From Okamejei kenojei (taxonomy: Eukaryota): 63,882 bases of DNA. The stretch is from NCBI GenBank assembly GCA_035221665.1, contig CM069137.1:38502001-38565882 (forward strand), in the 5' to 3' direction. Made by a program: the position numbers. This document shows, in pieces, positions 57,001 to 63,000 of the stretch; within the stretch, counting starts at the first letter, position 1, and each line of letters opens with the position of its first letter.

Positions 57001-60000
57001 TCAATGTTACCCAATGCAGTTTAGGGATGGGAACATTTAGATTATTATATCTTAATATTTTCCGTTTTTATCATTTAGAAGAGACCTAGAATTTTGCATT
57101 CTCCAAAAGAAAAAAAAAAATTTAGATTTACCCCCCCCCTCCCTCTCCTTCCCTCCTTATTTTGCTGTAAATGACTTTTGTTTTACACAAGGTTCTTCTG
57201 GTTCTCTGGACCAAATTAACAAAATATTATAGGGATCTTAATGCTCAATAATGTCCTTTTGCACACATTTTGCAAATGTATAAATTGTGTGTTATAATTA
57301 CAATTGTTAATTTGTTTTGAGCTCTTACCAGTTTGAAGTTTGATCTTTATTTTATGAGGACTTACGATGAGGGAATACGTGAAGAACCCCGTACAGCCGT
57401 TGGTGCATCAATCTTCAAAGCAGCGGAGTGAAATCACAGGTAATAATGACTGAAGTATAATAGTAAGATAACAAAGACTAGAACCAGCAGATGACATTTA
57501 TGAGGGTTGGGAGTGGAGGGCACGTAACAAACAATAACAACCCCTCTAACTCAGGGGGAAACTATAACATAACTCAAAACAGAATCAGCAAACACCCCCA
57601 ACCTTGTAATTGGCTTATGGTAAAATGTTTGGAAGGTCAGCTCACTGAACCATCCTGCGGCCGCAAGGATATGGTCTATTGGCACGTCCATCGCCCCTGC
57701 TGCGGAAGTTGATGCCGCTCTGGTGGAATGAGATTTGAATTTATCAGTATCAATCCCAGCACTTCCCAGAACCTTCTTTAGCCACCTTGAAATTGTTTGC
57801 ACCGACACCTTACTGTGTGGTTTTTTGTGGCTAATAAATAATGCAAACTCTGTTCTGCGTAGGGCTCTAGTGGCCTCAATGTAACAAGACAAATGTGATA
57901 CTACACACAGGCCAGCATCTGTGGGGTATGAACACATTCTTACATCCTGTCATCCCCATTCTACTACGTTTGAGCAAATCATAGACATAAAAAGTAATGG
58001 CTTCTGCCGATACCTGCATTCTGTCTAGCCGTAGCTTTTGCAATGTTTGCACACGTTGGGCTGATACCAACGCCATAAGCATGACCACCTTCATGGTTTG
58101 GCTAGAGATAGGCTTGCAACAGGAGCCCACTGGCGAAGAAGCATAAGAACTTCACTCACATTCCAAATACCGGCATACCTGGGTTTAGGAGGATTAGAAT
58201 TGAAAACTCCCTTCATAAATCGAGAAACTAACGGATGTGTCCCTACTGAATACAACTCTGAACTCATGGGTAAACAAGAGGGCAGAGCACTTCTGGCTGT
58301 ATTGTTCGCACTATAGCTTAATTTTTGATCAAAATAAAGAGTGGACAAGAACTTCAGTATGTCTGAGATGCCTGCAGTTTGATATGAGATATTCTGCTGT
58401 AGAGAGAATACCTCCCACTTCCTTATCAAGGTGATGTACTGCTTCTGAGTACTATCCCTGCAGGCCGACGTGAGAACATCCACAGTACAATCAGACAGTC
58501 CTCTCCCCAGGTATGGCCTCCTTAAAATCTGCAAATTAACAGTTCAATACGATCATGTAAAGGATGTTAATCGCCAGTTACTGGATCTACCAGTAGATTT
58601 TTATGTTTGAGAATAATCATGTGAGGCTGACTAGCCATTTGCAATGCGAGAGGGAACCATGGTGTGTAGGCTAATCTGGCACTACCAATACTCCTGAAGC
58701 AGAGTCCTGCTTGATTTCTTGCAAGCATCTACTGATGAGACAGAATGGAGGAAATGCATAAACAAACATTCCACCCCAATGCAGCGAGAATGCATCCACC
58801 GCTGCTGCATCAGCATCTGGTTCCCATGAAACATATCTGGGCAACTGATGGTTTAGTCTAGATGCAAACAAGTCAATATCTGGAATTCCACACTGAGCAA
58901 CCACTTGATTAAATATATCCTGATTTAACATCCATTCTATGTTATCATTGAATTGGTGTGACCTAATGTCAGCTACTGTGTTGAATCTGCCTGGTAAATA
59001 TATTGCTGAAAGCCAGATATTTTAGTCAATGCATCAGCTCCAGATCTGATTAGCCAGTCTATCACAAGACTGTGACTTGACTCCACCCATGTGGTTTACA
59101 TATGCCACTGCTGTAGTGTTGTAAATCTGAACCTGCACATGCAAGTCACTCCTGGCAGAGCAATAAGCTTTAAGCCAATACCAGGTTCCCAACAGCTCTA
59201 AATAATTGATCCCTCTTAATTGAAGAAGGGATGTTTCATCAGTATTTCATCTGCCTCCACAACTGGAAGACATATCTGTAGCACCCCAACCCAGCGCACT
59301 GACATCCGTCTGTAATATTATGGAAGGTGGTTCCATCAAAACCTTGCTAGAGCTTTTTGAAACATTTATGATCCAGCATTGAATTTCTGAAATTGCCCCA
59401 GCTGACAATTGCATAGACCTATCAAAATGACCTGCTTGTGTCCTCAGTGCCTATTCTTTTGCTTGTTGTAATTGTTGATAATGCAGAGGTCCATACTGCA
59501 CAGCTGGAAAAGCAGCCACCAGTTTACCAATTAAACTGGCTACTTGTCTAATTGAAGGTCGTTGTTCACTAAGGAGATTAACACAATCCTCAATTAACTG
59601 CTGGCATTTGTCCCTAGGCAAAGTTACTAACATGTGATTTGAATTAATGGTAAAGCCCAAATAATCAATAATTTGAACTGGTGATAATTTGGATTTATCT
59701 GGATGAATGACGAACCCTAATTGTTCAAAAGTAAGTTTAACAATTGAAACAGATGATTCAGCTACAGCCCGAGTCTTCCCAACAATTAAAATATCGTCTA
59801 AGTAGGCCATTACAACATGCCCCTAAGCTCGGAGTAATGCTAGAACAGGTTTTAACAATTTAGTAAATAATCTAGGAGCAGAAGTTAACCCATTAGGCAA
59901 TGCTTTGAATTGCCACAACTGACTCATCCAGATAAATTTTAAATACCTCCTATCATCACCATGAATAGACACTGAGTAATATGCATCCTTTAAATCAATG

Positions 60001-63000
60001 CTGGACATATAAAATCCTTTGGAAACCAGATGTTTAGCCGTAGGAAAGGTTTCCATTTTGAAATGCCTATAGCAAACAAAGGAGTTCAAACTCGTCAGGT
60101 CCCGACGCCAGCAATGGAGCTAGCGACCCCGTACCCGCTGCCTGTGAGCAGCGTAGCCATGCCGATGATTCTACATCCCCCAGTCTTTTTAGACCTAGGA
60201 AAAATACTTCACAGAAACTGAAGATTTTGACGAACTGACTTCTCAATAACCCCTTTTTTGTGTAAAGTGTTAAGTTCTGCTTGTATGAGCACATTTTCTT
60301 CTTCTGAAAATATACGTTTCTGACTTGGAACATGCTGATTAGGTGGACACGCGGTAGAGTAAAATTCAATTTTAACCCCCTCTATACTGCTCAGTATAAA
60401 TGAATCTGATGTTATCTCCTGCCATTGTTTCAGAGACAAGTGTAATCTGCCTCCAATTTGAACATCTATTTCACTTGATTCATTCTCTTTAAGAGGGATT
60501 TTTCTCACCTGCATACGTCCTGGCTGCCCTTGTTGCCCCCAGCCATTTGTAGGGAAAGTCATCCTTCCCCTCACGCCTGTGGCAGGCTGCCAGCTCCGAG
60601 ACTGCGAAGCTGAGTGGCTGGTCCCTTCCCCGGCGTCCGAACTGGTACCCCGGGAAGGAAAAATCCTCTTTCCTTGTTTGCCACCCAGCTTGATGAGGCC
60701 CATAGTTTTAGCATCCTCATGAAGCTCTAACTCACTTGGCGAGATCTACTCCAAATAAAAGATTGGGCGGTTGTAGGCTGGGCGGTTTACACAAAGATGC
60801 CAGATTGGGATTAATAACTGGCCGAATAGCACTTCGTCTGATATTATTGATTTCAAAATAAGCACTACGCAGATGTCCCAGTGCATCTTGATGGGCTTCC
60901 GACATATGCCCCTTGTCTACTGTAATGGCAAATGCCGTAATCCCTGCTGAAAGTAATTTCAATACCTTTTGGAATTTTAATTCTTGGGCTCTTGCTGACA
61001 CCCCCAACTGTGTCCATATGAGATGGTTTACCATAGGTACCTTTAGTAAACCGCAATTGATAGGGGCTTCATACTTTTTAGCCACCTCATCCATGGTCAA
61101 TTCCTGCAGCTGGTGAGAGAGCGTATATTGGATGGCTGATGCCAATTCATCCCCTAACGGTTCTCTTGCCTCTCTTGGCACTGCAAATGCCTCTGCTATA
61201 TTTGGGATAATTTCAAGTTCCACTCCCTTGTGGCTCTCCCCAGCCACTGACTCGGCGTAAGTACACAGCACCGGTATACCCTCCTCCTCAAAGGTTGGGT
61301 ATTCTTGCAGCCCTATTATAGATGCTGCGAGCACAGGCTCTCCACTAGCCTGCCGTGGGCACCACTCCTCCTCACGGAGTTCGTCCCTGTCGAGCATCTT
61401 CTGCAATAAGACCTCGACCTGGGAGAGCCGTGAGCAAACAGTCTCTCCTTTTGAGGATAAAACCTCCAGACCCGACTCTGGGTCCATGGGCCTAATTGAT
61501 TTTACAGTAGACTTATGCCCTACCGGCATGGCTACGCTGCTCACAGGCAGGGGTACGGTGTCGCTAGCTCCATTGCTGGCGTCGGACTTGGTGTGCTAAG
61601 TGGACCACCGCTAATACTATCCTGGTATCTGAAGAAGGGTTTTAGCCCGAAACGTCACCTATCTCCTTCGCTCCATAGATGCTGCTGCACCTGCTGAGTT
61701 TCTCCAGCATTTTGTGTACCCTCGATTTTCCAGCATCTGCAGTTCTTTCTTTAACATACTATCCTGGTCATCGACCCTTTTTGCAGCGGATCGCCTTGCC
61801 GACACCTTCTTCACTTTCTGTAACATTTCTAACGGTGTATCCACTACCGCTGCAACAGAAAATGAATGCAAGAAAAGTTTGAAAACTTACCTTGTGTTTT
61901 AAACTTACCGCTTGGAGGAGCTCTGCTGCTCCAACAGGCCGACTACACCAATGCGTCTGACGTAATGACGCACCAATGGCTGTACGTGGTTCTTCACGTA
62001 GTCACTCATGTGACTCCAAAGTAAAATCTGAATTTCTATAATGAAACATGAAATAATATAGTGCCAAGCAATGAATACATTGTGTGCTAATTTTTCTAAC
62101 AGTTCCTTCCTGTACTTTAGGCTTGCTTACGATATGTAGTTATTGCAAATCCAGAGTCCAGAAAATGAACTGTTAACTACAGGCACCTATTTGGGTGTCA
62201 ATAACAACACTTCTAAATGTCAAGAATAAAAATTGCAAAATAAGTTGCAGAATATAATAGTTTTACCATAAGACAAATCACAGATTTAAAAATAGTTGTC
62301 TAAATATAGCTCTAAATTTCTGGTATATCTGTTTGTGAATTAGGCATGAAAACGAATGGCACCTATAACATGAACTGTAGATTCCTCCTGTAGATGGCAA
62401 CAAAATACTGTTGTCTATTCAAGACAGCCTCTGCTGAAAGCAACTGTGCATTTACTCCTGTTATTGTTTATCAGCAAAAGCTTTTCATGAATGCACCTGA
62501 TTATGTTGTATCTGTACACATTGATAGCAAATGTAAACTACATTAAATTAATTATCTTTTGCTGTTTTGATTCATCCTTGTAGTCATTATTGAACTCATT
62601 TTAATCAATTCTGTGATCACTCATTTTCTCATTAATTCTTCTCAAAGGCTTGCCTCAAAAGTATAAGAAAAGTTGATATTTATATATTTAACTATTGCAG
62701 ATTTACAAGTGGCTGATTTAAATTGAGGGGTCAGAATTTCGGAGAACTCGGCCAGAATCGGAGCATACCCACCGTCCGCATCAGACACTGACCTGAGATA
62801 CGGGCTGGAGGAAACCGCTGGCCGCGGTGATGCGTGCTGGAGGGACTCGGGAGGAATGAGGCACTGGCCCTGCACATCAACCAGTCGGGAATAGGCCCAT
62901 AAGAAATCGGCGCCTAGCAACGGCTGGGTGACGTCCGTGATAGTAAACGGCCATGTGTAATGGCGGGAGCCGAAAACTAGGGGAATGGTGTGAGTGCCAT

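Follow-up and report, generated by a model that had tools for sequence, protein, structure and literature searches.

Predicted removal of the polymerase region as an intron in DIRS retrotransposons of Okamejei kenojei and their relatives, with a putative Gag-recombinase fusion as product

The window considered here, the whole stretch of DNA that was analysed, comprises 63,882 nucleotides of the Okamejei kenojei genome (assembly GCA_035221665.1, contig CM069137.1, positions 38,502,001 to 38,565,882 of the forward strand). It carries two dead retrotransposons, DIRS-A and DIRS-B, and the subject of this work is how their tyrosine recombinase (YR) may be expressed. Both elements, and all of their features given below, lie on the minus strand. 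DIRS-B is a dead copy, delimited by its terminal inverted repeats and by alignment of copies to about 57325..62025; its repeat arms (57367-57410 and 61966-62009) are 89% identical. DIRS-A (49066..53934) sits inside a LINE-like repeat and has inverted terminal repeats (49135-49176 and 53870-53911, 90% identity) and both halves of an internal complementary region (ICR; 49291-49371 matching 49066-49146, and 49365-49403 matching 53896-53934). Inverted terminal repeats, a DIRS1-like trait, are thus present in both elements. The ICR matching both element ends is present in DIRS-A; the region is absent from the window copy of DIRS-B, which near its 3' end lacks about 190 nt, where the ICR is expected, relative to other copies.

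DIRS-B also has the DIRS1-like domain order of reverse transcriptase (RT), RNase H and methyltransferase (MT) followed by YR. Pfam detects RVT_1 (E 3e-16), a weak PCIF1_WW match with an FPPF motif in the MT region, and, just below the cutoff, Phage_int_SAM_4 at YR residues 21-85 (E 9e-6); homologous proteins carry PF00589, PF17917 and PF05869. DIRS1-like elements are described, in passages of PMC3266345, PMC9210276 and PMC7192593, as having inverted terminal repeats and ICR at their ends, the order gag, RT, RNase H, MT, YR, and three separate open reading frames (ORFs). DIRS-B resembles the elements of those passages in ends and gene order, whereas its gag and pol, separate there, occupy one frame.

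The single frame becomes apparent when copies are compared. Searching the genome at the DNA level yielded 1548 first-look candidates for DIRS-B and 2845 for DIRS-A, of which 40 each were scored; all 39 other scored places were taken for DIRS-B and the top 20 of 39 for DIRS-A, resulting in alignments of 40 and 21 rows with the window copy included. The copies are about 8% apart and every one is broken. Across the 40 DIRS-B rows no stop is shared in the gag-pol frame from 62004 to 58524, about 1037 codons, so that the open frame starts before the gag ATG (61826) and ends at the pol stop TAA (58524-58522). Its gag part (60509..61826), from the ATG to the donor described below, spans about 395 codons in shared columns and is broken in the window copy. 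The linker between gag and pol is in frame in 25 of the 40 rows, 15 of these being free of stops, and shifted in the other 15. For DIRS-A, where ambiguous columns confound a column-based frame analysis, translation of each copy puts the linker in frame in 16 of 21 rows, seven of them without a stop. The initial annotation had let pol start at ATG 60514, which cannot be reconciled with a frame open far upstream. In the window copy, a CGA to TGA change at 60734 and small deletions break gag from pol, and this makes pol look like a separate ORF from ATG 60514; since gag passes in frame through it, that ATG is an internal Met.

Seven single copies of sister families in the same genome (L072-L074, L076-L078, L080) likewise carry gag and RT in one ORF of 739-935 aa. 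The usual layout of three separate ORFs is therefore not found in DIRS-A, DIRS-B and several sister families, while other families of this genome keep gag separate and have three ORFs. The in-frame gag-pol is a layout variant nested among three-ORF relatives. At least 13 DIRS families were seen in the whole genome, some with a slippery site between gag and pol and some fused in frame. P0022, an ENA protein of 1087 aa and of other origin, is a DIRS Gag-Pol encoded by one ORF; in-frame fusion is thus not confined to O. kenojei. Two rearrangements of DIRS-B are peculiar to the window copy: an insertion of about 125 nt in gag (about 61750-61625), which resembles a short interspersed repeat, and an inverted copy of gag 61524-61585 inserted in the RT region at 60102-60164.

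Within the gag-pol frame, the internal Met is followed directly by a phase-0 splice donor, CAG/GTGAGA (the two together at 60503..60514; GT at 60508-60507; weight-matrix score 6.8). A phase-0 acceptor, TTTGCAG with its AG at 58530-58529, overlaps the last pol codons (LLICRF and stop), and six codons upstream of it the recombinase frame is closed by an in-frame TGA (58546-58544; feature 58529..58546), found in 30 of the 33 rows with letters. The positions of donor, acceptor and TGA had been correctly described in the initial annotation. Donor and acceptor are canonical GT-AG sites in matching phase. The predicted intron (58529..60508) is the coding region of RT, RNase H and MT, 1980 nt long here and 1903 nt in copy L022. 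Immediately downstream lies the YR frame (57551..58528), which is frameshifted in the window copy and encodes 328 aa in copy L036.

DIRS-A has an equivalent arrangement. Its phase-0 acceptor TGCAG (50536..50546, AG 50537-50536) is present in 18 of 21 rows, and GAG/GTAC at 52404 lies 18 codons before the GGR motif, as in DIRS-B; both had been noted before. It had also been supposed that the ATG and donor of DIRS-A were decayed. The family does not bear this out: 16 of 21 rows read ACT GTA GAG/GTA CAG/GTG ATT, so that an ATG never stood there. The region (52393..52407) thus holds two donors, both in phase 0 and each present in 16 of 21 rows, namely the one at 52404 that is homologous to that of DIRS-B (score -0.2) and CAG/GTGATT at 52398 (score 4.6). 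Only a few copies, that of the window among them, have the latter mutated; the window copy has the triplet CAA where the family has CAG.

Within DIRS-B, 32 of 40 rows have the exact donor; of the 33 rows with letters at the acceptor, 27 read TGCAG. Such conservation was rejected as evidence of selection, as any position is equally conserved among dead copies about 8% apart. The evidence for the splice sites must therefore come from comparison between families. When the genome was searched with RT, 41,272 first-look candidates resulted, of which 150 were scored and 40 taken, mostly for their long open frames. Metagenome assemblies contributed another 80 loci, out of 411 related ones. Those loci that matched both pol and YR fell into 37 clusters.

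For the donor, 30 of the 37 clusters could be anchored on a [GA]GR motif at the start of pol and seven were dropped; the 90 nt before the motif were searched at a threshold score of at least 4. A donor in pol phase 0 is found before RT in 27 of 30 families, as compared with none of 253 control windows within pol. In the same 90-nt window, phase 1 yields 2/30 and phase 2 0/30, while gag windows yield 5/178. The donor lies 21-87 nt from [GA]GR, depending on the family, and the flanking protein cannot be aligned. Position +5 is G in 26 of the 27 donors and position +3 a purine in all 27, both positions being part of the score. Of the three misses, two are DIRS-A-related families with GAG/GTACA(G/A) and one is just below threshold. 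The linker before pol in L108, L110, L112 and L113 has two overlapping donors 4 nt apart, in phases 0 and 1; the second, in phase 1, would splice out of frame.

The acceptor was scored in 36 clusters, which fall into a late and an early group, labels assigned after a first look at the acceptor and overlap data. The 12 late clusters form one clade with DIRS-A and DIRS-B (support 96/80), in a tree that holds no named DIRS1-like reference elements. TGCAG stands at YR codon 1 in 11 of these 12 families, with closure of the YR frame 5-23 codons upstream; in DIRS-B and DIRS-A, shared stops six and nine codons before the acceptor close it, which leaves no room for a long overlap of pol and YR. YR codons 4-14, which lie past the stop of pol and ahead of any ATG, have a coding-type pattern in 13 families, with identities of 0.54, 0.68 and 0.39 by codon position.

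In the other 24 families TGCAG occurs at the pol-end position only once. Instead, 22 of the 24 have an in-phase YAG directly following FPPF in MT, as against 25 of 1238 background windows; it lies about 70 codons before the pol-end position used by the DIRS-A/B clade. The YR frame is open for at least 67 codons back to this candidate acceptor in 22/24 families, against 1 of 745 background runs, and in six of them it opens exactly at the acceptor's own TAG. The YAG uses an AGY Ser codon in 18 early families and TCN in three, AGY accounting for 133 of 508 in the background. The initial annotation had cautioned that TGCAG might be conserved simply as Cys-Arg codons. This is largely answered by the residue after the Cys, which varies freely in the 24 early families (H 8, L 6, R 4, K 4, P 1, Y 1) and is an AG-encoded Arg in 12/12 families of the late clade.

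Among 19 outside families, gag stops shortly upstream of the donor and an in-phase TTTTTTA or AAAAAAC heptamer precedes the donor in 15; in 11 of the 19 no pol-frame ATG lies before the donor. It is inferred from these motifs that the outside families enter the pol frame by a -1 ribosomal slip.

A junction was sought in sequencing reads. No run is on record as RNA; four contig sets from one study, guessed to be RNA, were aligned to copy L022. Among the 15 joints listed, of 17, there is one GT..AG joint. It skips 1903 nt, and its ends coincide exactly with the donor (1881) and acceptor (3785) predicted for this copy. Its support is a single contig of run X4, with a depth of 4.3 and 27 nt on the shorter side. 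In the host region, unique intronic DNA has a depth of zero in all four runs, and one X3 contig ceases to match at 48164, a candidate host donor, leaving 13 letters unmatched, although an X1 contig reads through; together, the zero depth and the end of the X3 match hint weakly at RNA.

No intron-less genomic copy was found with junction patterns for DIRS-B, DIRS-A and a sister family, allowing up to three mismatches for the DIRS-B joint; two genomic matches to the DIRS-B pattern proved to be ordinary acceptor sites. Among the 80 metagenome loci none lacks MT ahead of YR. Gag queries against proteins gave zero and two matches, neither of them a Gag-YR. The 20 long YR homologues are mostly gene models that join pieces of pol to YR, and one protein (P0010), with gag-like, short MT and YR parts, was set aside as only a prediction.

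Taken with the exact junction contig, the conservation across families supports the proposal of the initial annotation that YR is expressed by removing RT, RNase H and MT as a GT-AG intron, and this splice is probably real and widespread. The proposal that one ATG serves both pol and YR fares otherwise, since gag continues in frame up to the donor in DIRS-A and DIRS-B, DIRS-A has no ATG there, and most of the outside families have none either. The product is likely to be a Gag-YR fusion rather than Met-Gln joined to YR (M-Q-YR). We consider it quite probable that the unspliced RNA is both genome and Gag-Pol message and the spliced RNA the Gag-YR message. Most likely there is one transcript, from the left end of the element, with translation presumably starting at the gag ATG 61826. 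Unspliced, DIRS-B RNA would direct synthesis of Gag-RT-RNaseH-MT and would also be the template for copying, which implies that splicing must be incomplete. Splicing from 60509 to 58528, presumably by the spliceosome in the germ line, would join about 395 Gag codons to 328 YR codons, giving a protein of some 720 aa that may be the working recombinase. In most relatives, gag stops shortly before the donor and pol would be reached by the predicted -1 slip, the same splice again yielding Gag-YR; in the DIRS-A and DIRS-B lineages, in-frame fusion would have replaced the slip.

A second, upstream DIRS-B acceptor candidate lies after the FPPF motif (58732..58739, AG 58733-58732), in YR phase and then followed by stops; it is possibly a relic. 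This AG is found in most DIRS-B and DIRS-A copies and is missing from some in-frame families. Its use would give Gag with a short tail, a candidate route to free Gag. In its widest form, which we would put at an even chance, the model holds that a large animal DIRS clade uses one post-gag donor and treats RT/RNaseH/MT as a regulated intron, so that Gag is coupled with either polymerase or recombinase. The acceptor would lie in the FPPF-Ser motif of MT in most families and would have moved to the end of pol in the DIRS-A/B lineage, which would have lost the gag-pol frameshift and may make free Gag via the left-over upstream acceptor.

Several observations weigh against the splicing model. The values of the donor weight matrix are approximate, and the donor homologous to that of DIRS-B is weak in the DIRS-A-related families (GAG/GTACAG, -0.2). 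The late families being one clade, the shift of the acceptor is a single event among related families; the AGY Ser codons are inherited among related families as well, and FPPF supplies a pyrimidine tract for protein reasons. An in-phase AG after FPPF is kept in 6 of 12 late families despite the YR frame being closed after it. The junction is one contig in one of four runs of one study, and run X4 is rated 'RNA? (probably DNA)', so that its RNA nature is not proven. TGCAG stands on both sides of the joint, and with these 5 nt of microhomology template switching or deletion could give the same joint. In the DIRS-A contig alignment, where LINE joints dominate, there is no splice joint among the 15 rows listed of 187. 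The protein searches found no Gag-YR protein derived from RNA, and the production of free Gag in the in-frame families is left unexplained. Finally, 5 of the 13 late-clade families have an ATG two codons upstream of the donor.

The last point also speaks for a variant, improbable in our judgement, in which the splice is real and translation starts at this ATG, on a short internal RNA or by re-initiation, to give pol from unspliced and M-Q-YR from spliced RNA. ATG 60514 is indeed present in at least 38 of 40 DIRS-B rows, and in L083 the corresponding ATG comes 2 nt after the gag stop. However, gag passes in frame through it in DIRS-B, no such ATG exists in DIRS-A and seven more late-clade families or, in pol frame, in 11 of the 19 outside families, and the internal promoter is only postulated.

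We give equally little credence to YR synthesis from unspliced RNA, whether the ribosome shifts by -1 where pol and YR overlap or re-initiates at YR codon 16. YR is indeed in the -1 frame relative to pol and overlaps its end, and codon 16 is ATG in 16 of 19 DIRS-A rows. An in-phase slippery heptamer in the overlap is nevertheless found in 0/13 late families (scattered ones occur in 7/24 others), against 15/19 for the gag/pol boundary. In DIRS-B, 23 of the 31 rows with letters have GTG at codon 16 and 5 have ATG, and the next ATG, at codon 88, lies beyond the SAM-like domain. The earlier statement that YR has no ATG for about 88 codons thus holds for the window copy, where the first is at codon 88, and is family-specific otherwise, in view of codon 16 of DIRS-A. 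Neither route explains the conserved donor.

The splicing model must also be set against the view that protein sequence (Gln-Val, Cys-Arg, FPPF-Ser) has produced the motifs incidentally and that the contig with the junction is an artefact. The microhomology, the single contig, the unproven type of the run and the non-independence of the families can all be adduced for it. It leaves aside the donor count (27 of 30 families, 0 of 253 controls) at distances that vary and amid protein that cannot be aligned, the freedom of the residue after Cys where the acceptor is elsewhere, and the YR frames that open at the acceptor's TAG, and we regard it as very improbable.

DIRS-A and DIRS-B each have two strong tandem donors just inside their left terminus (61908-61850 in DIRS-B and 53817-53750 in DIRS-A). 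In DIRS-B, a good acceptor 59 nt past the first donor, ahead of the gag ATG, makes a leader intron likely (putative intron 61850..61908; donor GCG/GTAAGT at 61908, second donor at 61890, acceptor end at 61850). Least probable of all is an env-style use of the YR acceptor from these leader donors (scores 5.4 and 8.5), with YR starting at codon 16 and the 60508 donor serving some other role, as the sole joint seen at the acceptor arises from 60508, the codons upstream of YR codon 16 look coding, and the internal donor is in phase in 27/30 families.

Retroviral env and foamy-virus pol, as downstream genes, are expressed by removing pol or gag through splicing, while the unspliced RNA is the genome; the spliced mRNAs use a donor in the 5' leader and their own start codon. 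In DIRS-B, by contrast, the donor lies after gag, and splicing would yield a fusion to Gag. If the splicing model is correct, DIRS elements must balance spliced and unspliced RNA as retroviruses do. The recombinase would be tethered to Gag and packaged without a protease, the start-less 'non-overlapping' YR frames would be explained, and annotations that start YR or pol at the first ATG would be wrong. The conserved splice is moreover an exact and cheap prediction, accessible to RT-PCR or a read search.

How DIRS recombinase is translated is unsettled in the parts of the literature covered, the sole proposal there being a programmed frameshift for Ngaro YR by Poulter and Butler 2015, as quoted in a passage of PMC13003380. 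As in the Ngaro case so quoted, the YR frame of DIRS-B lies at -1 relative to pol, overlaps the last part of pol and has no obvious start. Unlike in that proposal, the DIRS overlap has a conserved acceptor and no conserved slippery site, the slippery sites lying between gag and pol. Passages of PMC3266345 report long pol/YR overlaps in only half of 28 elements; 'splic' and 'intron' occur nowhere in PMC3266345 and PMC9210276, and the passages covered give no route to YR. In plant Ty1/Copia elements, according to a portion of PMC5580714, a single gag-pol frame is subject to conserved alternative splicing that splits full-length from subgenomic GAG mRNA. The Copia splicing described there leads to Gag alone with premature termination, whereas the DIRS-B splice would fuse Gag to a downstream enzyme. 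No report of a DIRS splice that removes pol was met in the portions of literature searched (including PMC6681497, PMC5941688, PMC5633606, PMC3950715, PMC4157794 and PMC4495291); the main DIRS reviews, Poulter and Goodwin 2005, Goodwin and Poulter 2001/2004 and the Repbase reports are outside this coverage and may mention splicing.

Some further observations concern the surroundings of the two elements. The flanks of DIRS-A (49065 and 53928) are joined, as at an empty site, by contigs in all four runs, indicating insertion within a high-copy LINE-like repeat. Candidate host exons lie on the opposite (plus) strand at about 47967-48163, 55425-55507 and 56790-56840; if they belong to a host gene, both DIRS copies would be intronic and antisense to it. 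A remnant of a Gypsy-type gag/aspartic protease (Pfam gag-asp_proteas, E 3e-4) is found on the minus strand at 62642-63385.

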